A model generated the notes under the pieces. The model was not told the DNA's origin and searched no databases. It saw only the letters and a program-made list of their open reading frames with translations. 32,000 nucleotides of DNA, from contig NZ_LT934425.1 in NCBI RefSeq assembly GCF_900232105.1, positions 570,001 to 602,000 on the forward strand, given 5' to 3'. Positions 9,425 through 25,733 of this stretch are shown here, piece by piece (within the stretch, counting starts at the first letter, position 1; every line of letters starts with the position of its first letter). This stretch comes from Candidatus Kuenenia stuttgartensis (lineage in GTDB: Bacteria > Planctomycetota > Brocadiia > Brocadiales > Brocadiaceae). A program made the translations under genes and the position numbers.

Positions 9425-10198
9425 TTACCATACCTTCCAGGGCGCTTTACCCGATTTCCATAATTCCTCAAGCTCATACTTATCACGCAGATTATCCATC
9501 GCATGCCAAAAACCACTGTACCTGTATGCCGAAATAGCACCGTCACGGGCAAGATTCTGCATGGGATCCTGTTCCCAAACCGTTGAGTCGCCGGATATAT
9601 AATCAATAACACCAGGCTCCATTACAAAGAAACCCGCGTTTATCCATGCGCCGTCACCGTCCGGCTTTTCTTTAAAACTCGAAATCCTGGATTCTTCTTC
9701 ATTTATTTTTATGACCCCAAATCTGCCGGGCGGCTGCACAGCGGTAAGAGTTGATAGTGAATTCTGCTTCCTGTGAAATTCTATCAGCTCTCTGATATTG
9801 ATGTCCGAAACTCCATCACCATAGGTCAGACAGAATGTTTCTTTGCCCACATAGTCTTTGATCCTTTTTATCCTGCCTCCGGTCATTGTTTTTTCGCCTG
9901 TATCAACCAGCGTGACCTTCCACGGTTCCACGCCATTATTATGAACCTCTATCCTGTTATTTTTCAGGTCATATGTAACGTCAGACATATATAAAAAATA
10001 ATTTGAAAAATATTCCTTGATAACATGTCCCTTGTAACCAAGACAGATAATGAAATCATTCAATCCATAGGCAGAATAGATTTTCATAATATGCCAGAGA
10101 ATAGGCTTCCCGCCGATCTCCACCATTGGCTTAGGACGTATTGTACTCTCTTCTGATATGCGCGTGCCATAGCCTCCGGCAAGTATCACAGTTTTCAC
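9425..10198 (-). CDS. rfbF: Glucose-1-phosphate cytidylyltransferase, 257 aa
   Basis: The track ORF starts at a GTG at 10207. The second GTG at 10198 gives [40 protein letters not shown], the canonical RfbF N-terminus and length, with AAGGGA 9 nt upstream. Confidence 0.9.
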
Positions 10199-10510
10199 AA
10201 TAATCACTCCCTTTCTGTATTAAAATCAGAATTGTCTTGCGCAGGTGCATGATGTTTTATCCTAAGCAAACCAAAGACCAAAAAATTCGTAACGGATATT
10301 TCGATTTCATTGCTAACTGTTTAAAGCGAAAAAATATAAATATAAATTTGGAATAAAAATAATGATTCTCCGCTATTTTGCCGGAACTCCTGTCGATATC
10401 CTGTGAAAACTACTGTATGCTTTATAGAGAGCACGTCCGGTAGAATAGTTGAGGATTATACTACACATAGACAAGACAAGCTTAAGTGAAATGGTTTCAG
10501 GAAAATATTC

Positions 10511-10910
10511 TTATGCAGAATTTGCGTGATTGTATGCAATACCACGAAGTAAATGATATGCTGATATGACTGGTTATTGGAGGATATTCCATCTCCACAA
10601 TGCTAAGTAATAATAATATTACTTAGGTTTACTAAGCAGGAATTTGTGTAACAACAAATTTTGCTTATTATTTTTAACGCATGATTTGCGTGACTACAGA
10701 TTTCTTCGATATTAATTGATGCAGTTTGGTAATGGCAAGCCCGGGAAAAATATCTTCATTCCTTTTCGAATGTTCAGGATGTTGCAGATAATGACAACGA
10801 GACCATTGTTAACAGAAAATATCAGAGAAGTTGAGATAGATACTTAAACTCCAATGAATAGGTTTCCTCTCAACATTTTTAACGCAAGATTTGCGTGATT
10901 ATTGATTTTC
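10511..10910. repeat. Three dispersed copies of a ~35-45 bp motif containing the small palindrome ACGCA-N5-TGCGT followed by GA(T/C)T
   Basis: Copy a is 10511-10535 (ttatgcagaatttgcgtgattgtat). Copy b is 10670-10704 (atttttaacgcatgatttgcgtgactacagatttc). Copy c is 10874-10910 (catttttaacgcaagatttgcgtgattattgattttc). Core spacing is 164 and 205 bp. Copies a and c also share a ggtttc prefix. Confidence 0.6.
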
Positions 10911-10941
10911 TGTAAATATTTAGTATTTACAAAGGACTGAA

Positions 10942-11237
10942 GATGCACCGTAACTATTCAGCGTAATTTATTAAACTACCGGAGATCAGAGCGCGACTCT
11001 TTCCCAAACCTTGTACTGAACATATTGAAGTATCTGTTTGGGAACGTAATTGCACTGGAAACTTTGTTTCCAGTGAGGGTCTGACTTGACAAATTACAAA
11101 CTGCCTTAACCCTGTGATTTTATTCCCTATCTATCAGCAAACAGACGAGAAACCGGAGTTTCTCGAACAAATGCATTCCCAAACTGGAGTTTGGGAACGA
11201 GCCGTGTATCGTTTACGCTGAATAGTTACGATGCACC
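10942..11237. repeat. ~300-bp segment bounded by an inverted repeat and filled with short perfect hairpins
   Basis: Inverted repeat: 10949-10966 cgtaactattcagcgtaa pairs with 11213-11230 ttacgctgaatagttacg (18/18), with partially matching extensions. Internal hairpins: 11001-11044 (ttcccaaac...gtttgggaa), 11053-11075 (cactggaaac ttt gtttccagtg), 11147-11164 (gagaaac cgga gtttctc) and 11176-11197 (ttcccaaac tgga gtttgggaa). A degenerate third caaac...gttcgggaacgtaa module lies just outside at 11240-11266. Confidence 0.65.
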
Positions 11238-11779
11238 TCTCTCAAACTTGCTGTTCGGGAACGTAAAGGTGACGGAAACTACATTCGTGGGTTCACTCAC
11301 TCATTAGAAGGCTTTTGTCAAGGACAAAATATCTCCGGTCGCAAAAATATCTACATTTTCACGTTTTGAATACCCCTCCAAGTACGGAATCGCTCTTACT
11401 GCTGTTTACGAAAATGACTATACCGTTCACGTTTATCTACGCCCGTGGTATTTCGCAATTGTTTTGGTATCGTTCTCATCCGCACCATTCACCCATCGGG
11501 ATCAAGGCTTTGTGAAAGACTTTCTCACCGCCCCTGACTTATCTTCTGTCCCAGAAAACCATCGGTTCCATACCAGTGTCCAATCGTTATTCACAGAATA
11601 TTCGGCTCTACGGCCAAAACCTCACGGCTCATGGTATGGGCAGATCAGAATGGAATATTCTTTTTCGCCGATTCCTTTACCGGCACAACTCATAATAAAA
11701 GGTGGAACAACTTCCAATCAGGTTTCATGGATTGGTTACCTAACCCGCAACCGGTTCCTTGCACCACCTAATCTGCTTG

Positions 11780-12796
11780 CTACCCAAACATTTTTTTCTC
11801 GTCGTAGTTTACTTGCTCCTTTATTATGTAATAACATGCCCTGGCCAGCTTATTGCTCAAGGCTTTCGTTGCCAGAACTACATGGCTCTTTGACGCCTTC
11901 CTCTGATGCCATTTCCTTCCCTTTTCGCAAAATCTTACGTGAAAATGCGCTGCCTCCACATACGCCCACGCAAGGTATTTATTCCCGTTCTTACGGTTTC
12001 CTTTCCCTTTGCTCTTACCATTCGATAATTTTTTTGCCGATACGCATCTGCAATAAGATGAATACATCCCCACATCACTAAATCGCTCTATGTTCCCAGT
12101 CTCCAGCATTATCGTCATTGCCAGGATTTCGCCTATCCCTGGCACCTTGAGCAATTTCTTATACGGCTTCTTTAGCTTCACCTCCTTTAATACCGCTTTC
12201 TCTATCTTGTATATCTGCTTATTTAATACCTCTATTACCTCGTGATCGCACTGTGCTGACATGGTCAAATGCACGTCGCTGAACATCCCCATTACCTCTT
12301 CGTTACTCAGCTTCTTTATCGTATCACCGCTTATCGGTACTCCTTTGTTACGGTTTACCATCGTTTGCATACTCAATATATGCGCTGTCCTTTGTTGTAC
12401 CAACATCATCCGCTTCCTCAGTAAATCCCTCACTGACCGCGTCTCTTTGGGATAAATATATCCCTCTGGTAATATCTTTAACCGTAACATCTTTGCCAAC
12501 CAAAACGAATCCCTCGTGTCGTCAATGTACTTTAATCCCTCATACTGCTGCATTGCCGATGTATTTGCCAGGTGTACCTGATAGCCTGCCTCCATCAGAC
12601 CATCCACTATCCAGTACCAGTTAAAGGTCGATTCTACTACTATACCCTTTATTTCTTTTTTGTATGGCTCTAATACGCGCTTTATTTCATTGATGTCATT
12701 ACGGTTTCTCCTCTTGAATACCTTCCGATCCTCCTCATCGAGTATTCCAATATAATTATTATCACCATGTAAATCTATTCCTACGAAATATCCCAT
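11780..12796 (-). CDS. IS110-family transposase/recombinase (DEDD RuvC-like N-domain plus Transposase_20-type C-domain), 338 aa
   Basis: The ATG at 12796 has AGGAGG upstream (taaggagggagcgagcaATG). MGYFVGIDLHG, VVESTFNWYW and DDTRDSFWLAKM give the DEDD-type acidic residues. C-terminal LLKVPGIGEILAMTIMLETGNIERF...YSSYCRCVSAKKLSNGKSKGKGNRKNGNKYLAWAYVEAA is typical of the IS110 family. Confidence 0.9.
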   Translation of the reverse strand: MGYFVGIDLHGDNNYIGILDEEDRKVFKRRNRNDINEIKRVLEPYKKEIKGIVVESTFNWYWIVDGLMEAGYQVHLANTSAMQQYEGLKYIDDTRDSFWLAKMLRLKILPEGYIYPKETRSVRDLLRKRMMLVQQRTAHILSMQTMVNRNKGVPISGDTIKKLSNEEVMGMFSDVHLTMSAQCDHEVIEVLNKQIYKIEKAVLKEVKLKKPYKKLLKVPGIGEILAMTIMLETGNIERFSDVGMYSSYCRCVSAKKLSNGKSKGKGNRKNGNKYLAWAYVEAAHFHVRFCEKGRKWHQRKASKSHVVLATKALSNKLARACYYIIKEQVNYDEKKMFG

Positions 12797-12972
12797 TGCT
12801 CGCTCCCTCCTTACTTTGTTATTATTTAACAATCGCCTTTCACGGTATCCTCCATTTTACCATGAAGAGTGCGCTCGGAGGTGCCTTCTATATGATTATC
12901 AGGTTTGTAACCTGAACCAAACGTTTTATGCTTTCAATCCCGCCTTCTATTAGCAGAAAAATGGCAAAATGT

Positions 12973-12996
12973 ATCAGGAGCATCCCTGCTCCTGAT
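12973..12996 (-). other. Perfect 10-bp stem / 4-nt loop hairpin (atcaggagca ggga tgctcctgat on the minus strand)
   Basis: Seen directly. On the minus strand it is followed by acattttgccattttt, which is only partly U-rich. It could be a second terminator for the giant gene or part of the IS110 leader RNA. Confidence 0.4.
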
Positions 12997-13057
12997 TGCA
13001 ACCCACCGGGAATAACTTAGAAATGGTTTCAAAACACGTCTTTACCGCTTGAAAATG

Positions 13058-13080
13058 AAAAAAACAACCCTGACAGGGTT
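13058..13080 (-). terminator. Candidate rho-independent terminator of the giant gene
   Basis: Minus strand: aaccct gtc agggtt g ttttttt, beginning 4 nt after the TAG stop (13087-13085). The stem is only 6 bp, so it is weak. Confidence 0.5.
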
Positions 13081-13084
13081 AATC

Positions 13085-16000
13085 CTAATTCATCATAACC
13101 ACTTCCAGCGGAATCGTGTCGGACAATGTGTCTTTATTAAACAATAACAACACTTCCTCTTTACTTAATGCCTGATTATAAATGCGGACTTCATCTATGC
13201 TTCCACGGAAAAATCCCCAGTCGGTATATCTTGTTCCTATGGCCATATAATTCCGACTCGTTAATGGCACTATCACATTCCCCGATGGATGTGTTTGTGT
13301 ATCCGCCAACTGCCCGTCCACATATAACTTCTGTTCTCCCGTAGTCTTGTTGTATGTACCAACAACATGATACCAACTCCCATTCGAATCGGTAAAATCC
13401 TTTGTTGCATCTTTTACTGTCCTTGTCCCGCTTGTATTCCTTGTGACCACGACAAACCGAAGTCTGTTGGGCGTACCCGAATTAAAATACAAGTCAAATC
13501 CTTCCTGCAATTGCACATCAGCATTATATATAAAACCACCAAATATAACGCTAGTGCCAGATGCATTTTTATTGAACCATGCAGATACTGAAATCTCATC
13601 ATAATTCATTCTAGGAATTGTTACATAATCATTCCCGTCAAAATTCAATGCGCCACCGATTTTTCCCGTTGTCCATGTAGCTCCGGTAATTGTACCATTT
13701 CTGTTATTACCTGACGAATCCGTTGCAGTCGTTCCTCTCCCTTCATCAAATGTATAGTAGGCCTGCTGAGTCGTGTCCTGTGCAGCACCAGTGGTAAAGC
13801 TCCATGTGTAATTGGCCGCCATCGCATTCCCCGCCACATCCTTTACCCCCGTGGTAACCGTCACTGTGTACATTGTAGAATATGCCAGTGTACCTGACGG
13901 TGTAAACGTGACCGTCGTATCACTGCACGATACCGTTCCTCCTATAGTACCGTTCCCGTCACTCACCAGAAATGTTGACTGTGTTATGCTGCCGGCTTCC
14001 ATCGCCTCGCTGAACGTGCCGGTGATGACACTATCAATGGCAACATTGGTCGCACCATTTGCAGGACTTGTTGCGCTCACCGTCGGCGGCGTCGTGTCGG
14101 GCGCTGCACCAGTGGTAAAGCTCAATGTGTAATTGGCCGCCATCGCATTCCCTGACACATCCTTTACCCCTGTGGTAACCGTTACTGTGTACATCGTAGA
14201 ATATGCCAGACTACCTGACGGCGTAAACGTGGCAGTCGTACCGCTGTATGATACCGTTCCTCCTATAGTGCCGCTCCCGCCACTCACCAGAAATGTTGAC
14301 TGTGTTATGCTGCCGGCATCCATTGCCTCGCTAAACGTGCCGGTGATGACACTATCAATGGCAACATTGGTCGCACCATTTGCAGGACTTGTTGTGCTCA
14401 CCTCCGGCGGCGTCGTATCGGGCGCTGCATCAGTGGTAAAGCTCAATGTGTAATTGGCCGCCATCGCATTCCCTGACACATCCTTTACCCCTGTGGTAAC
14501 CGTTACTGTGTACGTCGTAGAATATGCCAGTGTGCCTGACGGAGTAAACGTGACCGTCGTATCACTGCACGATACCGTTCCTCCTATAGTACCGTTCCCG
14601 TCACTCACCAGAAATGTTGACTGTGTTATGCTGCCGGCTTCCATTGCCTCGCTAAACGTGCCGGTGATGACACTATCAATGGCAACATTGGTCGCACCAT
14701 TTGCAGGACTTGTTGTGCTCACCTCCGGCGGCGTCGTATCGGGCGCTGCACCAGTGGTAAAGCTCAATGTGTAATTGGCCGCCATCGCATTCCCTGACAC
14801 ATCCTTTACCCCTGTGGTAACCGTTACTGTGTACATCGTAGAATATGCCAGACTACCTGACGGCGTAAACGTGGCTGTCGTTCCGTTGTACGATACCGTT
14901 CCTCCTATAGTGCCGCTCCCGCCACTCACCAGAAATGTTGACTGTGTTATGCTGCCGGCTTCCATCGCCTCGCTGAACGTGCCGGTGATGACACTATCAA
15001 TGGCAACATTGGTCGCACCATTTGCAGGACTTGTTGTGCTCACCTCCGGTGGCGTCGTGTCGGGACTTACAGTGTCATTAAACAAAGACAACACCTCCTG
15101 GTCGCTCAGAGCCCGATTGTAAACCCGAACCTCGTCGACCTTACCGTCCATATAACCATTATTAACCCTTGAATACCCTATCCTCATATCTGAATAGGAC
15201 GTCAGTGGCACTATTGTGTTCCCTGCAGGATGGAGTTGGGTATTAACTAGCTGTCCATCTACATATAGCTTCTGTTCTCCTGTAGTTTTATTATACGTAC
15301 CTGCAGCGTAATGCCAATTACCAACTGAATTGCTAAAACTATACGTTCCTGTCTTAGTTGTCCTGGTTCCACTCACATTTTTTGACGTTAATATAAAATC
15401 AAGTCTGTCTGGAGAACTCGGATAAAATCGTAAATCAAAACCCTCCTGCTGTTGTAAGTTTGAACTCCATCTCCATCCACCGAATATGGCATCAGCGTTC
15501 GTCGTGTCATTTGCATTTTTATAAAACCATGCAGAAACCGAAATCTCGTCATAGTTTAAACGGGGAATCGATACATAATTGCTTGTACCGTTAAAACCCA
15601 AAGCCCCGCCGATTTTCCCTGTTGTCCATGTGGCTCCGGTAATTGTGCCATTTCTGTTATTACCCGACGAATCCGTTGCAGTCGCTCCCGTCCCTTCATC
15701 AAATGCATAGTGTGCCTGCAGAGTTGAGTCAGGCGATGCTCCCGTGGTAAAGCTCCAGACGTAATCGGCGTCCATACCATTGCCCGCCACATCCTTTACC
15801 CCTGTGGTAATCGTAGCCGTGTAGGTGGTGGATGAGGACAGGTTGCCAGACGGGGTAAACGTGGCAGTCGTACCGCTGTATGATACCGTTCCTCCTATAG
15901 TGCCGCTCCCGCCACTCACCAGAAATGTTGACTGTGTTATGCTGCCGGCATCCATTGCCTCGCTAAACGTGCCGGTGATGACACTATCAATGGCAACATT

Positions 16001-19000
16001 GGTCGCACCATTTGCAGGACTTGTTGTGCTCACCTCCGGCGGCGTCGTATCGGGCGCTGCATCAGTGGTAAAGCTCAATGTGTAATTGGCCGCCATCGCA
16101 TTCCCTGACACATCCTTTACCCCTGTGGTAACCGTTACTGTGTACATCGTAGAATATGCCAGACTACCTGACGGCGTAAACGTGGCTGTCGTTCCGTTGT
16201 ACGATACCGTTCCTCCTATAGTACCGCTCCCGCCACTCACCAGAAATGTTGACTGTGTTATGCTGCCGGCCTCCATTGCCTCACTGAACGTGCCGGTGAT
16301 GACACTATCAATGGCAACATTGGTCGCACCATTTGCAGGACTTGTTGTGCTCACCTCCGGTGGCGTCGTGTCGGGACTTACAGTGTCATTAAACAAAGAC
16401 AACACCTCCTGGTCGCTCAAAGCCCGATTGTAAACCCGAACCTCGTCGACCTTACCGTCCATATAACCATTATTAACCCTTGAATACCCTATCCTCATAT
16501 CTGAATAGGACGTCAGTGGCACTATTGTGTTCCCCGCAGGATGGAGTTGGGTATTAACTAGCTGTCCATCTACATATAGCTTCTGTTCTCCTGTAGTTTT
16601 ATTATACGTACCTGCAGCGTAATGCCAATTACCAACTGAATTGCTAAAACTATACGTTCCTGTCTTAGTTATCCTGGTTCCACTCACATTTTTTGACGTT
16701 AATATAAAATTAAGTGTGTTCGGGGAACTCTGATGAAATCGTAAATCAAAACCCTCCTGCTGTTGTAAGTTTGAACTCCATCTCCATCCACCGAATATGG
16801 CATCAGCGTTCGCCGTGTCATTTGCATTTTTATAAAACCACGCAGAAACCGAAATCTCGTCATAGTTTAAACGGGGAATCGATACATAATTGCTTGTACC
16901 GTTAAAACCCAAAGCCCCGCCGATTTTCCCTGTTGTCCATGTGGCTCCGGTAATTGTGCCATTTCTGTTATTACCCGACGAATCCGTTGCAGTCGCTCCA
17001 CTACCATCGTCAAACGCATAAAAAGCATGCAAAGCGCTGGATGTATCAGTTGATGGCATACCACTTGATGTTGTAAAGGACATTTTACTCCCATATGTCG
17101 TACCAGCACTGTTCTGCGCCGCTATCCTGTAATAATAAGTCTTTCCTGCCGATAATCCACTTATACCGATGCTTATCGTTGCCTCGTTCGACCCACCCGC
17201 ACTCTGCGTTGATGATTTACTGCCATAAGACCCGCTGGTCTCTCCATACTCGAACCACACCGTTGTCAATAACCCACCGGCATTCACCGTACCATTCAAT
17301 GTAGCAGTGCCAGACGTTACATCAGTTGCTGACCCTGTCGTCGCCGTCGGAATGGTGCCGTCAGGAGTGGTAGCACCAGTATAGATCACGGTAATCGTGT
17401 CTGTCTCCGTATTGCCTGCCCCATCTGTGGCTGTTATCGTGATTATATTCTCTCCACCTGATAAGCCTATGCCGGAAATATTCCAGCTTGTGCTTCCACT
17501 GGCCGTACCGCTTACACCCTTATTATTACTCCACGTTACACTGCTTACACCACTGGCACTATCTGAGGCATTGCCACCCAGGTTTATCATGCTGCTGGTA
17601 GTCTCATAGGTAGCGCTTGAAGTAGGACTGGTTATGGTTGCCACAGGATTGACCGTATCCAGAATGATAGAATCACTGGACGCTTCTGACACATTCCCTG
17701 CGGCATCCTTATACCACACATAGACCATCTTAGTACCATCCCCGCTGCTCAACGTATAGGAAACATCTTCGGTGTAACTGATAGAAGAAGTGACGGACGT
17801 CCACCCAGTGGCTGATGCTGATGGCGTCATGGAACTGGTAGAAAGGAAATATCCCGCCACCCCTACATTATCCGTTGCCGAAAGCGTCAGGGTTACTGTC
17901 CTTGAACCGATATAGGCATCGCCACTGTTTATACTGATCGAACAATTCGGCGCGGTGGTATCAGCGACAGAGGTTGATGACGGTGGCGGCAATTTCCATG
18001 TGCCGGCGAAAGAGCTTATGTAGACATAACTATTGTAAGGATTGACTGATATACCATGGATATTGATATCTGAACCCAGATTCCCATTAATATTCGTCCA
18101 GGTCATTCCATAATCGGTTGAACGAAAAATACCGTTTGAATGACCATACCATGAAGCATAAGCGGCTGCATACACCACATTGGGGTTGTTTGGGTCTACG
18201 GCTACTGAATTGATATCTTCGTATCCGTACCTGCTTTTAGTAATACCGTTGGCATTACCTCGGTATATCGTCTCTCCGCCATTGGCGCTTGTGTCTGTTA
18301 TGATATAGATACCTTCATTCCTCACCGCAGCATAGATTCTGTTTTGGTTTGTGGGGTCTATGGCAATTTGTTTAATATGATTACCACTTTTAACAGGTAT
18401 TGATGGATATAGGTTTGTCGCCGACCACGTGCTTCCTTTATCTGTGGATTTTTGAATATACCAATTACCGGTAGTACCATCTTTCCCCCAGGTATATACA
18501 ATGTCGCCATTCCCCTGAAACATGCCAAGGACGACTTTTGAATTCGCTACTGCAACATACGCATTAGATGTTCTTATATTATCAAACCTGTATTTGCCCG
18601 CATAAAGAATGTTATTATTTTGCGGATGGAAACTCATTAAACAATTTAACCAGTCATTTTCCCCCCCTTCAGTCCCGGATATAGCAGCAAAGGAATCTCC
18701 GCTATTTCTTGATACGGCAACTTTATATTCACCATCTGTCCAATTTCCATTAATTTCAACAATAATATTCCCCTTTATTGCCCCGCCAGCCGCAGATCCT
18801 TTTGGCGTGGCGGTTGAAATACTCTTAAAAGTATCCTCGCCATCCGTTGTTAGCATCGGCCCAAAGTCCATATGGAAAGTTGCCAATACATTTGGATCAT
18901 CTCTATCCCATCCAAACAGAGACGGACTGCTCACTATCCCAGCAGAGCCGGTATAGCCTGTATTTGAATACTTCCAGGTAACACCTCCGTTAGTAGTCTT

Positions 19001-21763
19001 TCTTACAATACTAGCATGCCCACTTATTAACGCCGTATTTTCAATGGTTGGATGAAAGGTAACCGGGACTGCCCATTCTCCTGAACCAGAAAAATCTTGA
19101 GTCCACTTACCGCCTTCAAACTCGGAGCCACATACCCAACCATCGCCATTTTGCTCGTCCATTGTATCCGTCAAAGTCCAATTCGTTCCTCCGTCGTGAG
19201 TATAATAAAGCTGTTTGGTCGGCCATAACCCAAGAAACCCTACCATTAATTTGTCAGGATTTACCGGACTCATCGCAATTTGTTGCGCTTGGCCGGTCGT
19301 TCCGTTACTAACAGGAGATGCCTTTGTTTGCGTGAATGTCAACCCCCCGTCTTTTGATTTATAAACGCCATTAGTATTTGCCGTTGCATACATAATATTG
19401 GGATTGTTGTAATTAATTACCGTCGCGTATGGATGAGATGGTAGCCCTGTTCCTATTTTTGTTACTGTTGCGGAACTGCCGTTATCCACAACCTTGTACA
19501 AGCCCCAGCCGGTTGATACAAATAGGATACTGCTATCAGTTGGATGTACTTTTATATCATACAACCCGTCATAGGCGTCTAAAACATACCCGCCTCCCGA
19601 TTTATTGACCAAATTCCACGTCGTGCCGCCATCGATTGATTTTAAGAGTCCGCCTTCACTCTGCGCCGCGTAAATCGTACTTCCCGCAAAAGCAAAATGA
19701 ATACCGCCCACGGCTTTGTATCTATGAAAATGCGCATCTTTAACCATTGTCCAATTATCGCCACCGTCGGTCGTCCTAAATATTCCTTCCGCGTCATGCT
19801 GTTTGGATATTGGCGTGCCACTGGCACTCATCTCACTTCCGGCAACATAAACGATATTCGGATTTGTAGGATCAACGACTATAGAAGCCCCGCCATTGGC
19901 AAAGAATCCATTTGCCTTTCTTTCCCATTTAATACTGTAAGGGTCTGCATTGGCATTTGTGGTTTTCCATACCTGATTTGTGTCGGAAACTAAATATGCA
20001 ATATTGGAATTGGATGGAGCATAAACAATACCACTTATCAACTGCCATCCCTCGCCCCCTGAAAGCCCCGCCGTCTTCTGAGCTTGCGTTCTTTTGACTA
20101 CCTGCTGCCATGTCTGTGTACTGCCAGATTGTTTAGAGATTATGGCTTTTGTACTCTTTTTTGACGATACACTGTTGCGTGATCCGCCAGCAGGATAGTA
20201 CTCAACCAACGTCGTATGCGTCAACTCACTGCCATTTACTGTTTCATCCGAAGTCTCCGAACCCGATGTCACATCTGACTCTGACTCTGTCTCTGACCCG
20301 GTCTCTACTGTCGACAAAGCACCATCTCCCGATACGGTAAAGATGTATCCTTCACCTATGTTATCCTTGCTCTTTAAACTTACCTCGTTACCAACAATGC
20401 TGACATCGGCGCTCCCATCCCCTGACTCAACAAAATAACCGTCAGTCCGCTGCACCGCGGTTACCGTCTCACCCACATTAAGCGTTATAGCCCCTGACAA
20501 CGTCAAAAACACAGCAAAAAGCTTTCCTGTCTTTGGATGACGTGAATACATGACATCACTCCCCGCATAACTCTTTGTACTATGATAAACACTGCCATCC
20601 CATGTACGTTCACTGAGCGGCACATTATTAAGATTATCCCAGTTGGGTATGCACCTTATGAGTTTGAGTCGGGGAGAAACCTCGGTAATACTCTTAAAAC
20701 CCGACATATCTCCTGTGTCGCCAAACCACCCAAACCAATTATACCAGCCGCCGTTAATGCCAGCCTTGGCTGCAAAAAGACGATTCCTGTATTCATCTGC
20801 TTCGTTTGTTTGGGAGTTGCCAACCTTGTCTTTTGTAATATCTACCCCGGCATTAAAATTGTTGGCATCATCTACATAATTTGTATTTTGCGGGCTTTTT
20901 TGGCTTAGCATATCCGGCGTTAGCTCATCCTTGTCTGCCCGGACTTTTACCTGATATATCCATTCATCATTGTCCGACTCACTATAGAGCAACGTTGGTT
21001 GAACGATCCATTTAGAATTCGTGAATTCCTGAGAAATCCTTGTCCTTAATTTCTTGTAAAATGCAGCCATTCCCTCTGAATACGTTGCATACTCATGGGT
21101 AATGGCGCCATGCACCAAACCCAGATCCGCTCCTGTCCAATAAGACAAATCTACAGATATGTTATTCCCCGTTTCGTCTAATCTGTAAAATTCACCTGCA
21201 AGCTTTGGCTCATCAATTATATATCCGCCAAAGGTGAACGGCAACCCTGGGTTTTCATAACTCTTTGCCAGGCTTATAATATTTTCAACTACCTCATCAA
21301 TAACCGCCTGTTGCTGAAAATCCCACATTACGTAAAATTGCTCTGAAGACCCGGCAGGGTGATAACCTGTCGCCAGATTGTAAGGAAACGGATCATGGCT
21401 TTTCCATACCATACGCTGATTGTAAAATTCCTTAGCTTCCTCTGAAAGAGGCTGCGTAATGTCTATCGCCCTGCTATATCCTGATAAAATCTGTGGATAC
21501 CATTGTGGGTTGATCAGATAATACTTAAGGCCTGTGCAATTGGGATTATTGTGATAGTCTGTAACTTCTGAGGATGGATTTATCGCAATGGAATCATACC
21601 CCATCTGCCTTGCATAGCTAACGTCCTCAGATGGTTTATCATTCCAGTGTATGCCATAAATATTTTGATATGCTTTTTCTTCCGCAAAATTCTTTTCGTT
21701 GAAAATAAAAATATGGGCAAATATTAAAAAGAAAATACTTACGCTGCTGATTCTTAGCTTCAT
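13085..21763 (-). CDS. Giant secreted multidomain surface protein, ~2,892 aa. Order: signal peptide, unassigned ~480-aa N-domain, S/E/T linker, Asp-box (BNR/sortilin-like) beta-propeller region, Ig-like x2, Fn3-like, LamG, Big_5 x2, LamG, Big_5 x4, LamG.
   Basis: The track ORF starts at a TTG at 21796. The ATG at 21763 has AGGAG 8 nt upstream and gives MKLRISSVSIFFLIFAHIFIFNEKNFAEE, which looks like a signal peptide. About nine Asp-box motifs are present (TTDGGDNWT, SIDGGTTWN, SKDGGLTFT, THDGGTNWT, TTNGGVTWK, STDKGSTWS, STDYGMTWT and others). The three LamG modules end in G(K/S)(V/I)DEVR(V/I)YN(R/Q)ALS, which resembles Laminin_G_3. The six units PDTTPPEVSTTSPANGATNVAIDSVITGTFSEAM...TVTTGVKDVSGNAM resemble Big_5/SbsA Ig-like domains. 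No C-terminal anchor or sorting signal was recognised. Confidence 0.9.
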   Translation of the reverse strand: MKLRISSVSIFFLIFAHIFIFNEKNFAEEKAYQNIYGIHWNDKPSEDVSYARQMGYDSIAINPSSEVTDYHNNPNCTGLKYYLINPQWYPQILSGYSRAIDITQPLSEEAKEFYNQRMVWKSHDPFPYNLATGYHPAGSSEQFYVMWDFQQQAVIDEVVENIISLAKSYENPGLPFTFGGYIIDEPKLAGEFYRLDETGNNISVDLSYWTGADLGLVHGAITHEYATYSEGMAAFYKKLRTRISQEFTNSKWIVQPTLLYSESDNDEWIYQVKVRADKDELTPDMLSQKSPQNTNYVDDANNFNAGVDITKDKVGNSQTNEADEYRNRLFAAKAGINGGWYNWFGWFGDTGDMSGFKSITEVSPRLKLIRCIPNWDNLNNVPLSERTWDGSVYHSTKSYAGSDVMYSRHPKTGKLFAVFLTLSGAITLNVGETVTAVQRTDGYFVESGDGSADVSIVGNEVSLKSKDNIGEGYIFTVSGDGALSTVETGSETESESDVTSGSETSDETVNGSELTHTTLVEYYPAGGSRNSVSSKKSTKAIISKQSGSTQTWQQVVKRTQAQKTAGLSGGEGWQLISGIVYAPSNSNIAYLVSDTNQVWKTTNANADPYSIKWERKANGFFANGGASIVVDPTNPNIVYVAGSEMSASGTPISKQHDAEGIFRTTDGGDNWTMVKDAHFHRYKAVGGIHFAFAGSTIYAAQSEGGLLKSIDGGTTWNLVNKSGGGYVLDAYDGLYDIKVHPTDSSILFVSTGWGLYKVVDNGSSATVTKIGTGLPSHPYATVINYNNPNIMYATANTNGVYKSKDGGLTFTQTKASPVSNGTTGQAQQIAMSPVNPDKLMVGFLGLWPTKQLYYTHDGGTNWTLTDTMDEQNGDGWVCGSEFEGGKWTQDFSGSGEWAVPVTFHPTIENTALISGHASIVRKTTNGGVTWKYSNTGYTGSAGIVSSPSLFGWDRDDPNVLATFHMDFGPMLTTDGEDTFKSISTATPKGSAAGGAIKGNIIVEINGNWTDGEYKVAVSRNSGDSFAAISGTEGGENDWLNCLMSFHPQNNNILYAGKYRFDNIRTSNAYVAVANSKVVLGMFQGNGDIVYTWGKDGTTGNWYIQKSTDKGSTWSATNLYPSIPVKSGNHIKQIAIDPTNQNRIYAAVRNEGIYIITDTSANGGETIYRGNANGITKSRYGYEDINSVAVDPNNPNVVYAAAYASWYGHSNGIFRSTDYGMTWTNINGNLGSDINIHGISVNPYNSYVYISSFAGTWKLPPPSSTSVADTTAPNCSISINSGDAYIGSRTVTLTLSATDNVGVAGYFLSTSSMTPSASATGWTSVTSSISYTEDVSYTLSSGDGTKMVYVWYKDAAGNVSEASSDSIILDTVNPVATITSPTSSATYETTSSMINLGGNASDSASGVSSVTWSNNKGVSGTASGSTSWNISGIGLSGGENIITITATDGAGNTETDTITVIYTGATTPDGTIPTATTGSATDVTSGTATLNGTVNAGGLLTTVWFEYGETSGSYGSKSSTQSAGGSNEATISIGISGLSAGKTYYYRIAAQNSAGTTYGSKMSFTTSSGMPSTDTSSALHAFYAFDDGSGATATDSSGNNRNGTITGATWTTGKIGGALGFNGTSNYVSIPRLNYDEISVSAWFYKNANDTANADAIFGGWRWSSNLQQQEGFDLRFHQSSPNTLNFILTSKNVSGTRITKTGTYSFSNSVGNWHYAAGTYNKTTGEQKLYVDGQLVNTQLHPAGNTIVPLTSYSDMRIGYSRVNNGYMDGKVDEVRVYNRALSDQEVLSLFNDTVSPDTTPPEVSTTSPANGATNVAIDSVITGTFSEAMEAGSITQSTFLVSGGSGTIGGTVSYNGTTATFTPSGSLAYSTMYTVTVTTGVKDVSGNAMAANYTLSFTTDAAPDTTPPEVSTTSPANGATNVAIDSVITGTFSEAMDAGSITQSTFLVSGGSGTIGGTVSYSGTTATFTPSGNLSSSTTYTATITTGVKDVAGNGMDADYVWSFTTGASPDSTLQAHYAFDEGTGATATDSSGNNRNGTITGATWTTGKIGGALGFNGTSNYVSIPRLNYDEISVSAWFYKNANDTTNADAIFGGWRWSSNLQQQEGFDLRFYPSSPDRLDFILTSKNVSGTRTTKTGTYSFSNSVGNWHYAAGTYNKTTGEQKLYVDGQLVNTQLHPAGNTIVPLTSYSDMRIGYSRVNNGYMDGKVDEVRVYNRALSDQEVLSLFNDTVSPDTTPPEVSTTSPANGATNVAIDSVITGTFSEAMEAGSITQSTFLVSGGSGTIGGTVSYNGTTATFTPSGSLAYSTMYTVTVTTGVKDVSGNAMAANYTLSFTTGAAPDTTPPEVSTTSPANGATNVAIDSVITGTFSEAMEAGSITQSTFLVSDGNGTIGGTVSCSDTTVTFTPSGTLAYSTTYTVTVTTGVKDVSGNAMAANYTLSFTTDAAPDTTPPEVSTTSPANGATNVAIDSVITGTFSEAMDAGSITQSTFLVSGGSGTIGGTVSYSGTTATFTPSGSLAYSTMYTVTVTTGVKDVSGNAMAANYTLSFTTGAAPDTTPPTVSATSPANGATNVAIDSVITGTFSEAMEAGSITQSTFLVSDGNGTIGGTVSCSDTTVTFTPSGTLAYSTMYTVTVTTGVKDVAGNAMAANYTWSFTTGAAQDTTQQAYYTFDEGRGTTATDSSGNNRNGTITGATWTTGKIGGALNFDGNDYVTIPRMNYDEISVSAWFNKNASGTSVIFGGFIYNADVQLQEGFDLYFNSGTPNRLRFVVVTRNTSGTRTVKDATKDFTDSNGSWYHVVGTYNKTTGEQKLYVDGQLADTQTHPSGNVIVPLTSRNYMAIGTRYTDWGFFRGSIDEVRIYNQALSKEEVLLLFNKDTLSDTIPLEVVMMN
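13790..15073 (-). repeat. Four tandem 321-bp units (107-aa Ig-like domain) in an alternating variant pattern, B-A-B-A in plus-strand order
   Basis: Exact 321-bp periodicity is visible in the track as antisense ORFs starting at 13812, 14133, 14454 and 14775. The units at 13812 and 14454 share the SDGNG/SCSDTTVTF variant. The units at 14133 and 14775 share the SGGSG/SY(S/N)GTTATF variant. This implies duplication of a 642-bp double unit. Confidence 0.95.
14753..15742 (-). repeat. Copy 2 of a ~990-bp near-identical segmental duplication (LamG module plus adjacent Ig unit); partner at 16064-17053, offset 1311 bp
   Basis: Direct comparison: 15061-15140 against 16372-16451 differs at 1 position. 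The LamG protein copies are about 95% identical, with differences clustered at 15390-15429 versus 16701-16740. Confidence 0.9.
15743..16384 (-). repeat. Two tandem 321-bp units of the same Ig-like repeat
   Basis: Same unit as at 13790-15073; antisense-ORF phase markers are at 15825 and 16086. The unit at 16064-16384 is near-identical to the one at 14753-15073. Confidence 0.9.
16064..17053 (-). repeat. Copy 1 of the ~990-bp segmental duplication (LamG module plus adjacent Ig unit)
   Basis: See the partner at 14753-15742. The 1311-bp offset equals 669 bp (LamG module) plus 642 bp (two Ig units). Confidence 0.9.
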
Positions 21764-22345
21764 TGCTATTGCTCCTAATAAAAGATTAACTAACAAACAT
21801 GGTGACCTGGCGAGCTTCGGTATTTCCGAAGCCCCATGGCTTTGCGTCCCAACCTCACGATTGGTTTGCCTTTTTCACGTCTGCTATCTCTTATCAGGAG
21901 TTAGCAAACATAAAACTCAATATTTAGATTTGGCGATTCCTCCCTTCTCACTTAAAAATCTTTATTTACGATTTATCTCTACAAATGAGTCCAGTTTTTT
22001 TAAATGTAACTACAACAACTGCAGCTTTCGCAGTTCGCGCAGATTTTGTAATATTAAATTCCACAAATTATTTTTATCTTTTGTCCCTGTAATCTGTGAA
22101 ATCTGCGGTTACAAACACTTTTATTGGTCTGAAGTTTTACCTCGTTAACTGTTATAAATATCGACAATTCTTGAAAATATTTAATAAAATTATAAAACTA
22201 TTTTTAAGAAAAATATTCTCAAAACTAAATATACTACAACCTAAATTCTGCAATGCAATAGCACGTAGATGAGCGCTGACAAAAGCGGATTAAACAAGGT
22301 GCAAAGGTTGCACATTCTAAAAGCTCATAAGAAGTTAAAATTCCC

Positions 22346-22442: not shown

Positions 22443-23420
22443 ATGATGAGATTACTATTAGATATCGCCCGAAAATATCGTAAAAAATTTCAACATTATC
22501 AGACTTACCAGAAAATAAAATATTTTGAATCTATCAATAATTTTGACCCAAAGAAAAATATAATAATTACAGGATCTCCGAGAAGTGGTACTACGTGGCT
22601 ACAAGAGTTGTTTTGTGACATTGAAAAAACGTATCCGTTGTTTGAACCACTGCATCTTGATGGCTCCCCAAAGTTTAAAGAAATAGGTTTTGAGTGGGGA
22701 CAGTACATTCCAGAAGATTATAATTGGCCTGAAGCAAAGGAGTTATTCGAAAGCCTTTTTAGAGGACAATATTTAACACCGTTCATGATTTCACATGCCA
22801 GGGTAGCGCAATTAAAAAATGCAGATTTCTTAATTATTAAATATGTAAGAGCAAATTCATTATTACCTTGGTTCGTTAGGCAATTCGATATCAGGCCACC
22901 TATTTATATTCTTAGGCATCCATGTGCTGCAATTGCTTCACAGATGAAAATGAACTGGTACACATGTTCAAAATTTACCATACCAAAAACGAAGTTCCCT
23001 GAAAAATATACAAAATATGAACATATATTAAATAATATTAATACAACACTAGAATATGTAGCAGCCAAATGGTGTTTGGATAATATAATACCATTAAATC
23101 ATCATGGAAATAATAGACTATGGATAACCGTTTTCTATGAAAATTTAATTGCGAACCCTCATGAAGAAGTACCCTATATTTTTAATAGGCTCAATCTGGA
23201 ATTACCTCGAAATCTATGGTATAAGGTTAATGTACCAAGTGCTATGACTGGTAGCATCTCGCCATTAAGACAAAACAAAATAGAACAATTAAGTAAATGG
23301 AAAAATGAGTTATCAGAAAGGGATATTGACTCTATCCTGGGTATGCTTAAAAAATTTGAGATAAAAATTTATGATGATAACATTTTCCCTGTTAAAACCA
23401 AGCAAACTCCAGCGAGGTAA
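22443..23420 (+). CDS. Sulfotransferase family protein (PAPS-dependent), 325 aa
   Basis: The 5'-PSB loop is IIITGSPRSGTTWLQELF. The 3'-PB-like region is ILRHPCAAIASQM. It is the only plus-strand gene in the window. Confidence 0.75.
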   Translation: MMRLLLDIARKYRKKFQHYQTYQKIKYFESINNFDPKKNIIITGSPRSGTTWLQELFCDIEKTYPLFEPLHLDGSPKFKEIGFEWGQYIPEDYNWPEAKELFESLFRGQYLTPFMISHARVAQLKNADFLIIKYVRANSLLPWFVRQFDIRPPIYILRHPCAAIASQMKMNWYTCSKFTIPKTKFPEKYTKYEHILNNINTTLEYVAAKWCLDNIIPLNHHGNNRLWITVFYENLIANPHEEVPYIFNRLNLELPRNLWYKVNVPSAMTGSISPLRQNKIEQLSKWKNELSERDIDSILGMLKKFEIKIYDDNIFPVKTKQTPAR

Positions 23421-24834: not shown

Positions 24835-24862
24835 TCAGCCATCAGCCATCAGCTATCAGCTA
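24835..24862. repeat. Four heptamers in the opposite orientation (TCAGCCA TCAGCCA TCAGCTA TCAGCTA); the last contains the stop codon of 4HB gene 1
   Basis: Read directly. TCAGCCA is the reverse complement of TGGCTGA, so this array is inverted relative to 24732-24822 across a 12-nt spacer. Confidence 0.95.
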
Positions 24863-25234
24863 AATAGTTTTCTTTATTGCATTTATAAGACTTGAAAGCT
24901 GCTTACCGATTGTATCTCCTGCTATTCGTAAATCATTAAGGTTTGAACTGGAAATCCATTTATTTTTGTAAAATATAGTTAGAAAAGTAATTGTTTCAAA
25001 TAGTGACCCACGTGCGATGTACAGGTATTGGATAAATTCTTTTTTAGAATTACGCCCTTTGCCTTCGGCAATGTTTGCGGAAATTGATGCTACAGATGAT
25101 TCTAATTGTTCTATAAGCCTGTAATGATTCCGATTAGTATTCATTATTTCAGCAATATCAATGACACTTACTGCAAAATCTACAGCTTTTTGCCAAACCT
25201 CCAAATCCTCAAAACTAAACTTTATTCCACTCAT
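24860..25234 (-). CDS. Four-helix-bundle protein (23S rRNA intervening-sequence protein / Avd-like family), copy 1, 124 aa
   Basis: FEDLEVWQKAVDF...HYRLIEQLESSVASISANIAEGKGRNSKKEFIQYLYIARGSLFETITFL matches the family signature (DL.VWQKA...QL.RA..SI..NIAEG..R.S.KE...FL.IA.GS..E). Strong SD present: GGGAGGGGAGGAAA-ATG. Confidence 0.9.
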   Translation of the reverse strand: MSGIKFSFEDLEVWQKAVDFAVSVIDIAEIMNTNRNHYRLIEQLESSVASISANIAEGKGRNSKKEFIQYLYIARGSLFETITFLTIFYKNKWISSSNLNDLRIAGDTIGKQLSSLINAIKKTI

Positions 25235-25255: not shown

Positions 25256-25297
25256 TCAGCCATGAGCTATCAGCTATCAGCTATCAGCCATCAGCTA
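25256..25297. repeat. Six heptamers (TCAGCCA TGAGCTA TCAGCTA TCAGCTA TCAGCCA TCAGCTA) between the two 4HB genes; the last contains the stop codon of copy 2
   Basis: Read directly. Confidence 0.95.
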
Positions 25298-25669
25298 AAT
25301 AGTTTTCTTTATTGAATTTATAAGACTTGAAAGCTGCTTACCGATTGTATCTCCTGCTATTCGTAAATCATTAAGGTTTGAACTGGAAATCCATTTATTT
25401 TTGTAAAATATAGTTAGAAAAGTAATTGTTTCAAATAGTGACCCACGTGCAATATACAGATATTGGATAAATTCCTTTTTAGAATTACGCCCTTTGCCTT
25501 CGGCAATGTTTGCGGAAATTGATGTTACAGATGATTGTAATTGTTCTATAAGCCTGTAATGATTCCGATTTTTATTCATTATTTCAGCAATATCAATGAC
25601 ACTAACTGCAAAATCTACAGCTTTTTGCCAAACCTCCAAATCTTCAAAACTAAACTTTATTTCACACAT
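25295..25669 (-). CDS. Four-helix-bundle protein (23S rRNA IVS protein / Avd-like family), copy 2, 124 aa
   Basis: The track ORF extends to 25690. The ATG at 25669 (MCEIKFSFEDLEVW) is preceded by the same GGGAGGGGAGGAAG SD as copy 1 and gives the same length. It differs from copy 1 at 6 of 124 residues, and the two genes are offset by exactly 435 bp. Confidence 0.9.
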   Translation of the reverse strand: MCEIKFSFEDLEVWQKAVDFAVSVIDIAEIMNKNRNHYRLIEQLQSSVTSISANIAEGKGRNSKKEFIQYLYIARGSLFETITFLTIFYKNKWISSSNLNDLRIAGDTIGKQLSSLINSIKKTI

Positions 25670-25691
25670 CTTCCTCCCCTCCCTTGACAAT

Positions 25692-25733
25692 CAGCCATCA
25701 GCTATGAGCCATGCGCTAAGAACCATCACCCAT
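25692..25733. repeat. Six heptamers of the same family upstream of 4HB copy 2, running into the last codons of the radical SAM gene
   Basis: Minus-strand reading: ATGGGTG ATGGTTC TTAGCGC ATGGCTC ATAGCTG ATGGCTG. The first two and a half units encode the C-terminal MGDGS-stop of the radical SAM ORF. Confidence 0.85.

Follow-up and report, generated by a model that had tools for sequence, protein, structure and literature searches.

A c-di-GMP-I-type riboswitch and a giant, predicted secreted protein with a degenerate glycosidase-like barrel in a glycan cluster of Candidatus Kuenenia stuttgartensis

The stretch of DNA analyzed here, 32,000 nucleotides of the anammox bacterium Candidatus Kuenenia stuttgartensis (contig NZ_LT934425.1, positions 570,001 to 602,000; hereafter the window), carries a giant gene on its reverse strand, between the two halves of a glycan cluster. 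The open reading frame (ORF; 13085..21763 in window coordinates, (-) strand) encodes 2,892 amino acids, as an earlier note made from the sequence had proposed: the frame is single and uninterrupted, and the exact protein is on record in NCBI/UniRef. Upstream of it lies a riboswitch aptamer of the cyclic diguanosine monophosphate (c-di-GMP)-I type (21797..21879, (-)), which is absent from the earlier note and is the most informative feature of the locus. The protein begins with a signal peptide-like segment and continues with a degenerate glycoside hydrolase (GH)-like barrel, an acidic linker, a GH74-like propeller and a long series of immunoglobulin (Ig)-like, fibronectin type III (Fn3)-like, LamG and Big_5 modules, an order of domains that the earlier note had laid out and that motif mapping and Pfam reproduced.

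In the window, the frame remains open from 13085 to 21796 (-), where an in-frame TTG directly adjoins the aptamer on its 3' side. A start at the ATG (21763) is more likely, because a proper Shine–Dalgarno (SD) sequence, AGGAG, stands 8 nt upstream of it. A hairpin with a T-run resembling an intrinsic terminator (13065..13081, (-)) is located 4 nt past the stop codon and no terminator was found between the aptamer and the ORF, and on this basis the gene appears to be monocistronic and to be controlled at the level of translation. The mature protein has a computed mass of ~303 kDa and a pI of 4.65. On reading the sequence, its N-terminus, MKLRISSVSIFFLIFAHIFIFNEKNFA/EEK, resembles a Sec-type signal peptide (residues 1-27; 21683..21763, (-)), in agreement with the earlier note; it lacks a lipobox cysteine, and the same n/h/c pattern is found in the orthologs. 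At the other end, motif mapping found no recognizable sorting signal in the C-terminal tail of 12 residues, where the earlier note had likewise recognized no anchor.

The riboswitch and its leader

A scan of the whole window against Rfam returned a single match, RF03167 (c-di-GMP-I-GGC), which spans the full model (1-80) with 63.1 bits against a gathering score of 59 (E 7e-13). This score, above the curated threshold, places the aptamer in Rfam clan CL00126 (c-di-GMP-I/GEMM-I), and its 3' end is 33 nt from the ATG. A covariance model of our own, built from 20 aptamers of related loci, scores the window aptamer at 83.9 bits and, in a scan of 848 kb of related loci, detects 39 copies. In the alignment of the 20 aptamers, 97.9% of the cells are paired and compensatory changes occur in 10 of the 20 pairs; in the covariation control, the aptamer value was matched by 0 of 500 shuffles and by no slid register. 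The leaders of orthologous genes score 59.6-73 bits or match RF01051.

The "GGC variant" label of RF03167 could be taken as a sign of an altered ligand, an interpretation that we did not adopt, since the aptamers carry A at the variant column. Specifically, the window and all but one (locus L029) of the 20 aligned aptamers read GACGC-A-AA, where the RF03167 consensus is GACGC-G-AA. We take this A to be the canonical A47 in Vc2 numbering, in which the ligand contacts are G20, A47, and C92, with G, G, and C in the GGC variant. Because the aptamer has A rather than G at this position, the predicted ligand is likely to be c-di-GMP itself.

The coupling of the aptamer to this gene family is a property of the lineage and extends over orthologs and paralogs alike. 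Among the orthologs, those of Kuenenia, Brocadia, Loosdrechtia, and related metagenome-assembled genomes have aptamers on their 5' side (MAGs; loci L001, L008, L010, L014, L016-L019, L021-L023, L027, L029, and L064). Seven of these loci (L014, L017, L019, L021, L022, L027, and L064) have two upstream aptamers, which are arranged in tandem except in L019 and L022. Among family genes with enough upstream sequence, to which these counts apply, 24 of 39 in Brocadiales-like loci are preceded on the same strand, at a distance of no more than 600 nt, by an aptamer, compared to 0 of 24 in other phyla. The aptamer typically lies 117-139 nt ahead of the match to the N-terminal domain (N-domain) in Brocadiales-like loci.

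The predicted folds of the leader would offer a means of regulation. Ahead of the aptamer, a 5' leader (21880..21915, (-)) forms a stable hairpin (GUUUGCUA...UAGCAGAC) in RNA folding, which reaches a few bases into the 5' end of the aptamer and sequesters the 5' strand of P1; folded alone over 21872-21915, it has an energy of -18.5 kcal/mol with a z of -7.45, and equivalent hairpins occur in L023, L031, and L033. This leader also contains an anti-SD sequence, CUCCU, at 21896-21900. When the whole leader is folded, the hairpin bases instead extend P1, and CUCCU pairs with the SD, so that the two predicted folds, upstream hairpin and P1 extension, are mutually exclusive. Between the aptamer and the ATG, the expression platform (21764..21796, (-)) contains the motif UCUUUU(A/G)UUAGGAG, which is conserved in 15 aligned leaders and whose last five bases are the SD (21772-21776), 8 nt before the ATG. 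For the window, L008, L031, and L034, the P1-extended fold is predicted to pair the anti-SD with the SD, pointing to an OFF switch. Taken by itself, the leader geometry of the window would suggest that c-di-GMP turns translation off. The RNAalifold consensus of the 15 leaders, however, has CUUUU and AGGAG paired in a local hairpin, which an extended P1 could disrupt, pointing to an ON switch.

One relative, the Planctomycetia MAG H5_AMX3 (L010), has the modules of the giant protein divided over separate genes. A gene for N-domain and propeller adjoins one for a LamG protein, the gene for a Big_5 protein lies ~4.6 kb upstream, and c-di-GMP-I riboswitches lie just upstream of both the N-domain and propeller gene and the Big_5 gene. 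Behind the LamG gene come genes for a BBP2 porin and a Bac_transf protein, such as loci for extracellular polymeric substances (EPS) typically contain. The arrangement points to a local c-di-GMP riboswitch regulon of putative secreted proteins, and the split genes support the view that the fused modules of the giant protein may work together. The aptamers of this locus, at 2144-2238, 3567-3669, and 3786-3888 (+) and at 17467-17561 (-), include one single and one tandem pair that precede a 200-aa protein without a Pfam match and a Big_5-containing protein, at a distance of a few kb from the N-domain and propeller gene. In a second locus of the same MAG (L064), the cluster ortholog (9935-11154) is interrupted by frameshifts or stops, with a 47-aa N-terminal ORF and the N-domain in two frames, and it retains a tandem riboswitch and an intact downstream Ig/LamG coding sequence.

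Domains of the giant protein

Residues 30-480 (20324..21676, (-)) form the N-domain, which the earlier note could not assign to any family. Searches of Pfam, NCBIfam, and the PDB (the last by phmmer and by profile) gave zero sequence matches for it, and none of 43 family members matches any GH model in Pfam, even at E<=1. The domain is nevertheless part of a small family: a word-indexed search found 121 homologs, and an exhaustive profile search of 1.84 billion proteins defined 397 clusters at 50% identity, mostly from Brocadiaceae but also from Elusimicrobia, Omnitrophica, Lentisphaerae, Verrucomicrobia, Bacteroidota, and others. Many homologs stand alone, as proteins with a length of 460-500 aa. 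An alignment of 43 sequences was used for an AlphaFold2 model, which, with a predicted local distance difference test (pLDDT) score of 92.7 and a predicted template modeling (TM) score of 0.90, shows alternating β/α units followed by a β-sandwich. Foldseek returned 198 PDB matches for this model at E<=1e-3, and nearly all of the best 50 of the 198 are GHs with a TIM barrel or carbohydrate-active enzymes related to these, headed by GH66 dextranase (5e-9) and followed by GH13, GH36, GH31, and GH168; the TM scores are only 0.3-0.49 and the identity is ~10%. At the level of the modeled fold, the N-domain is a GH-type (β/α)8 TIM barrel with a C-terminal β-sandwich, from a family that lacks a Pfam model. 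The glycosidase-like barrel that the earlier note had raised as a speculation is thus borne out as a fold, whereas an enzymatic role has become less likely for the reasons that follow.

Four carboxylates conserved in the family, D119, D155, E226, and E260 (numbered as in the N-domain query; adding 29 gives the protein numbering), occupy the C-terminal ends of consecutive strands or the positions immediately beyond. The window protein retains D119 and D155 but has Q in place of E226 (Q255 of the protein) and K in place of E260 (K289), and so appears to lack the pair of catalytic carboxylates at strand C-terminal ends that characterizes TIM-barrel GHs. The loss is shared: all 18 sequences that are at least 63% identical to the window N-domain, the window protein and 17 orthologs, have D155N and/or a non-acidic residue at 260, with D-D-Q-K as the commonest pattern. 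Kuenenia, Brocadia pituitae, Jettenia ecosi, and Loosdrechtia are represented among them. At greater distance in the family, nearly every member has D-D-E-E. Other pocket residues (N100, Q121, Q122, H194, N298, N308, W311, W314, R336, and R341) are kept in the window. The N-domain is also the best-conserved part of the protein, with 69-90% identity between orthologs (the window, L008, L009, L016, and L017) versus 40-51% for the propeller. The loss of the carboxylates in what is nonetheless the most conserved module makes it probable that the domain is a pseudo-glycosidase, maintained by selection for something other than catalysis; the simplest such role would be the binding of carbohydrate.

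The ancestor of the domain was probably an enzyme, because L022, a deeper-branching ortholog residing in the cluster, has intact D155, E226, and E260, and because intact members in one Lentisphaerae locus adjoin a GH10 gene and a major facilitator superfamily (MFS) transporter, a neighborhood that fits a true hydrolase ancestry. Hints at the substrate in other phyla were confined to this one locus, a Puniceicoccaceae locus with phage genes being uninformative.

The N-domain is followed by an acidic linker rich in S, E, and T (residues 481-565; 20069..20323, (-); 35% S+T), whose start coincides with a pLDDT below 50 at N-domain query residues 453-472 in the model. The next region (residues 566-1262; 17978..20068, (-)) corresponds to the ~690-aa stretch in which the earlier note had seen about nine Asp-boxes and one or two β-propellers. 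Motif mapping counts eight clear Asp-boxes, Pfam recognizes BNR motifs, and the region alone matches Sortilin-Vps10 with 76 bits against a cut-off of 33. The number of propellers is two according to the AlphaFold2 model (pLDDT 87.3): in Foldseek the top 24 PDB matches are all GH74 enzymes aligned over the full length (E 1e-23 to 2.5e-17, TM 0.64-0.70), and model and matches agree on the tandem seven-bladed propeller of the BNR/Sortilin-Vps10 type, with the cleft between the two domains that is the hallmark of the GH74 fold. Sequence similarity to GH74 is significant at the level of the family profile, which was made from 49 homologs and matches 1sqj at 5e-43 and 2cn2 at 1e-40; the window region alone matches over a stretch of only ~50 residues (1e-11), and the NCBIfam GH model on the giant protein stays below threshold. 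From its model and profile, we regard the Asp-box region as a GH74-like twin seven-bladed propeller.

In this region the protein might have kept a catalytic site. The catalytic D35 of the oligoxyloglucan reducing-end-specific cellobiohydrolase OXG-RCBH (1sqj) aligns with D594 in the hidden Markov model alignment, and its D465 can be paired with D966 by spacing (43 versus 44 residues past an aligned motif). Asp is conserved at these two positions in 42 and 44 of the 49 homologs, respectively, so both appear to be kept and the propeller may still be catalytic. The main alternative, which we consider rather unlikely, is that the protein is chiefly an enzyme, in which the propeller, perhaps together with the N-domain through substitute residues, would cleave the polysaccharide of the cluster, as PslG, PelA, and BcsZ do in EPS loci, and so control chain length, release the polymer, or disperse the matrix. 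The LamG and Big_5 modules and the degenerate barrel would then target the substrate, and c-di-GMP would most likely repress, which is what the P1-extended fold of the window predicts by pairing the anti-SD with the SD. The profile match, the structural scores, the conserved Asp positions, the intact L022, and the Lentisphaerae members beside GH10 and MFS genes all favor such a role. The identity to GH74 enzymes is only 15-18%, however, the equivalence of the second Asp comes from spacing rather than alignment, and the broad propeller family is annotated only as BNR or photosystem II-assembly-factor-like, with no activity known. Moreover, the propeller is the fastest-evolving part of the protein and is missing from the cluster-resident orthologs L012, L013, and L029, whereas the most conserved module is the one that has lost its carboxylates.

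The remainder of the protein consists of two Ig-like domains, an Fn3-like domain, and three LamG modules interleaved with two plus four Big_5 repeats, as the earlier note had described and as Pfam and motif mapping confirm. The Ig/Fn3 segment (residues 1263-1581; 17021..17977, (-)) has weak Pfam matches to Big_7, Glucodextran_B, K319L-like PKD, and Fn3, and motif mapping places the Ig domains at 1270-1370 and 1373-1460 and the Fn3-like domain at 1475-1570; Ig/Fn3 modules likewise come after the N-domain in Brocadia paralogs. Then follow LamG (Laminin_G_3) module 1 (residues 1582-1795; 16379..17020, (-)), Big_5 repeats 1-2 (1798-2011; 15731..16372, (-)), LamG module 2 (2019-2232; 15068..15709, (-)), Big_5 repeats 3-6 (2235-2662; 13778..15061, (-)), and LamG module 3 (2670-2880; 13124..13756, (-)). 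Both families are above the Pfam gathering threshold, Big_5 with 551.6 bits in six stretches and Laminin_G_3 with 213.9 bits in three. LamG modules 2 and 3 are 96% and 63% identical to module 1, respectively, and the Big_5 units are DNA repeats of 321 nt that are 84-97% identical (81-99% at the protein level). The near-identity of the first two LamG modules and of the Big_5 DNA repeats argues that the C-terminal expansion is recent. The content of Ser+Thr is 35% in the Ig/Fn3 segment and 28% in the LamG/Big_5 part.

The orthologs differ in their C-terminal module sets and in length, the shortest having 1,159 aa and the longest more than 2,119 aa. The closest named relatives are a K. stuttgartiensis MAG fragment (P0124) with 98% identity to the giant protein and Kuenenia sp. 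Bin_40, whose N-domain is 89-90% identical; the latter has two gene copies (L008 and L009), of which L009 is without a detectable aptamer. The junction between the start of the gene and its upstream neighbors recurs in identical copies in at least six metagenome contigs. Identical or near-identical gene fragments were also found in MAGs labeled Anaerolineae and Taibaiella (L053, a contig of 1,738 bp, and P0240-P0242), which are probably binning errors arising where the repetitive gene breaks assemblies. Near the contig end of L008, a match to group II introns (RF00029) occurs at 130-207, upstream of a sulfotransferase homolog.

The glycan cluster and its conservation

On its left side, the giant gene is flanked by genes for an ABC-2 permease, two nucleotidyltransferases, methyltransferases including a C-methyltransferase (4668-5906, (-)), a DUF4910 protein, a class IV aminotransferase, a uridine diphosphate (UDP)-glucose dehydrogenase, and an epimerase/dehydratase. 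On its right side are a divergent sulfotransferase gene (22443-23420, (+)), three GT4-type glycosyltransferase genes, and genes for a radical SAM/SPASM protein (25716-26744, (-)), a methyltransferase, and a Wzy_C protein (30626-31975, (-)), and the cluster as a whole encodes several S-adenosylmethionine-dependent methyltransferases. This gene set suggests a methylated, possibly sulfated glycan. Two tandem genes of the 23S_rRNA_IVP family (four-helix bundle; 24860-25234 and 25295-25690, (-)) are located between a GT4 gene and the radical SAM/SPASM gene; a strain variant (L002; 99.1% identical overall) differs slightly at this pair, with a second match of 95% to the paralog.

When the window proteins were compared by tblastn with 63 loci encoding N-domain relatives, a common gene order emerged, in which GT4b, the radical SAM gene, and GT4a precede the N-domain gene, and rfbF, the epimerase, and UDP-glucose dehydrogenase (or the C-methyltransferase and DUF4910 genes) follow it. 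The order recurs in L008, L012, L013, L015, L017, L019, L020, L022, L026, L029, and L064, from Kuenenia, Brocadia, Jettenia, Loosdrechtia, and other Brocadiales-like MAGs. The tie between gene and glycan locus that the earlier note had drawn from the sequence alone thus holds across several anammox genera, and the main orthologs were not seen to be absent or elsewhere in relatives that have the cluster.

An IS110-family transposase gene (DEDD_Tnp_IS110 and Transposase_20; 11780-12832, (-)) separates the giant gene from the rfbF-like gene. It sits in a gap of 2.9 kb (10208-13084), where the equivalent distance from the last LamG module to rfbF in L017 and L064 is ~240-340 nt, which indicates that the IS110 element, and not the giant gene, is the insertion, local to the strain or species, that parts the gene from the sugar-nucleotide genes. 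The transposase immediately downstream, the GC content of the gene (0.44-0.54 versus 0.33-0.40 in the flanks), and the unrelated upstream neighbors of the relative in L001 could be taken to mean that the giant gene is a passenger, carried in with IS110 or landed there fortuitously, whose function is unconnected with the glycan genes. We consider this very improbable, as the same flanks and position occur in at least ten loci from several genera that are free of the insertion sequence, and the higher GC content fits a composition rich in Gly, Ala, Thr, and Ser. Carriage of the gene on IS110, or its horizontal acquisition as an insertion, was rejected on the same conserved synteny. Within the gap, ~1.5 kb (10208-11780) is without a convincing ORF and may be a remnant of a mobile element; it contains an inverted repeat of 26 nt (10941-10966 and 11213-11238, 92% complementary) and two strong terminator-like hairpins (11146-11165 and 11174-11199, (-)).

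The Wzy_C family includes both O-antigen ligases and PglL-type O-oligosaccharyltransferases. The protein might itself be the acceptor of the glycan, i.e., a heavily O-glycosylated surface or S-layer-associated protein with sugars on its Thr/Ser-rich Big_5 and Ig region. The Wzy_C-family protein and the methyltransferases of the cluster, including the C-methyltransferase, would be in line with this, as would the Ser+Thr contents given above, and the O-glycans on the Kuenenia S-layer protein are heavily methylated (PMC5088730). On the other hand, the vast majority of Kuenenia glycopeptides have been assigned to the S-layer protein (bioRxiv 10.1101/2020.12.03.409086), the published glycopeptide of that protein, Kustd1514, is absent from the giant protein and from the window, and a role as acceptor leaves the conserved GH-like, GH74-like, and LamG modules unexplained; we regard it as improbable. 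Identity of the giant protein with the S-layer protein was rejected on the same grounds, as the one peptide compared, LGTQATSALPLIALTK, occurs neither in the protein nor in any of the six reading frames of the window. Of the earlier proposal of a glycan-binding or glycan-processing surface or S-layer-type protein, the link to the glycan locus stands by synteny, but no evidence was found for the S-layer part.

A candidate c-di-GMP-controlled glycan-binding protein

The reading that we favor, with slightly more confidence than doubt, is that the giant protein is made under the control of c-di-GMP, is exported by Sec to the outside of the cell, and there binds, and possibly remodels, the glycan of the cluster. 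Leader hairpin, riboswitch, SD and ATG, ORF, and terminator form a self-contained unit, in which the intracellular concentration of c-di-GMP would set the amount of protein by controlling access to the ribosome-binding site. The product would be exported by virtue of its Sec signal peptide and, once outside, would bind and possibly trim the glycan made by the flanking genes. Binding would take place through the degenerate barrel, the GH74-like cleft, and the three lectin-like LamG modules, with the Ig, Fn3, and Big_5 domains acting as spacers between them.

Several observations weigh against this reading. No aptamer was detected for 15 of the 39 Brocadiales-like family genes, the predicted leader folds imply conflicting signs of regulation across loci, a close relative in Loosdrechtia (L001) has unrelated upstream neighbors, and many paralogs, such as those in Brocadia paralog arrays, lie outside glycan clusters. 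Neither an anchor nor an outer-membrane export signal was recognized in the protein, whose secretion, glycan binding, ligand glycan, and part in aggregation or in the matrix we infer. Since the propeller keeps both Asp positions, the protein may primarily be an enzyme. As to the barrel, the putative catalytic roles of D155, E226, and E260 are deduced from conservation and position at strand ends. The argument from carboxylate loss depends mainly on D155 and E260, as even among paralogs in which these two are intact, E226 is variable. Finally, the DSSP string of the model shows nine β/α units, which makes both the strand numbering and the choice between GH-A-like, GH13-like, and GH66-like schemes ambiguous.

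Among known systems, the giant protein most resembles, by functional analogy, biofilm matrix proteins such as RbmC and Bap1 of Vibrio cholerae. These are secreted proteins of β-propeller and lectin modules that bind the VPS polysaccharide and are controlled by c-di-GMP, and the rbm cluster is located between vps-I and vps-II, just as the giant gene, also with propeller and lectin modules, is encoded between the two halves of a glycan cluster. RbmC and Bap1 are much smaller, however, and come under c-di-GMP control through the proteins VpsT and VpsR instead of a riboswitch; with its degenerate GH-like barrel and GH74-like twin propeller, the giant protein is not expected to be related to them in sequence. 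Exported GH-fold proteins encoded inside polysaccharide clusters are also known, namely PslG (GH39), PelA (GH166), and BcsZ (GH8), but these are small single-function proteins that keep their catalytic residues, whereas the barrel of the giant protein has lost its carboxylates and belongs to a Pfam-less family. With the GH74 xyloglucanases and OXG-RCBH (1sqj, 2cn2, 5fkq, and 6p2m), the propeller shares two seven-bladed Asp-box domains, a similar length, and, apparently, Asp at both catalytic positions (the second by spacing). It differs from them in its low identity, in being embedded in a protein of 2,892 aa, and in its host, which as a chemolithoautotroph would have no evident need of plant xyloglucan; the branch to which it belongs has no known activity.

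The regulatory arrangement has its closest counterparts in Firmicutes. A collagen-adhesion gene of Bacillus thuringiensis lies behind a triple-tandem c-di-GMP-I riboswitch (PMC4759541), tandem c-di-GMP-II riboswitches precede surface-anchor genes, and genes for surface proteins or adhesins are common targets of c-di-GMP riboswitches, which frequently come in tandem (PMC9481103). As in those cases, single or tandem GEMM-I-type aptamers are found here directly 5' of a gene for a very large, putatively secreted multi-domain protein, but the host is a planctomycete, there is no LPXTG-type anchor, the family is GH-like, and the unit is situated within a glycan cluster. Large proteins tied to surface glycans have been described in anammox bacteria themselves: Kustd1514 and BROSI_A1236 of Brocadia are extracellular, as is predicted for the giant protein, and have been linked to surface glycans and the biofilm matrix, although neither is reported to have GH-like or GH74-like modules or a riboswitch (PMC5088730, PMC10202920). 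We found no paper on the giant protein or on c-di-GMP riboswitches in anammox bacteria.

A broader proposal, which we advance only tentatively and hold to be on the doubtful side, is that anammox bacteria possess a lineage-specific c-di-GMP riboswitch regulon around one secreted, Pfam-less GH-like family, in which the giant member would be a pseudo-glycosidase turned lectin-like scaffold that couples c-di-GMP to the tethering or remodeling of surface polysaccharide.

Three features set the locus apart from the known systems. One is the lineage-wide coupling of a riboswitch to a single GH-like family without a Pfam model, another is a constrained subclade of that family which has lost its carboxylates, and the third is the GH74-like propeller that the protein carries. 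The analysis defines a glycosidase-like family of ~400 clusters, and the subclade that has lost its carboxylates while remaining strongly constrained is a clean candidate for a transition from enzyme to binding module. It also places GH74-like propellers in a context unrelated to the degradation of plant cell walls. For anammox bacteria, the relevance lies in aggregation, as anammox wastewater treatment depends on the formation of dense granules. In such granules, c-di-GMP correlates with EPS (PMC11224092); our literature search found no direct c-di-GMP target in anammox bacteria. The locus is a concrete candidate for such a target that would link c-di-GMP to anammox aggregation, and the regulon, if true, would provide the missing molecular link from c-di-GMP to granule and biofilm formation in anammox reactors.

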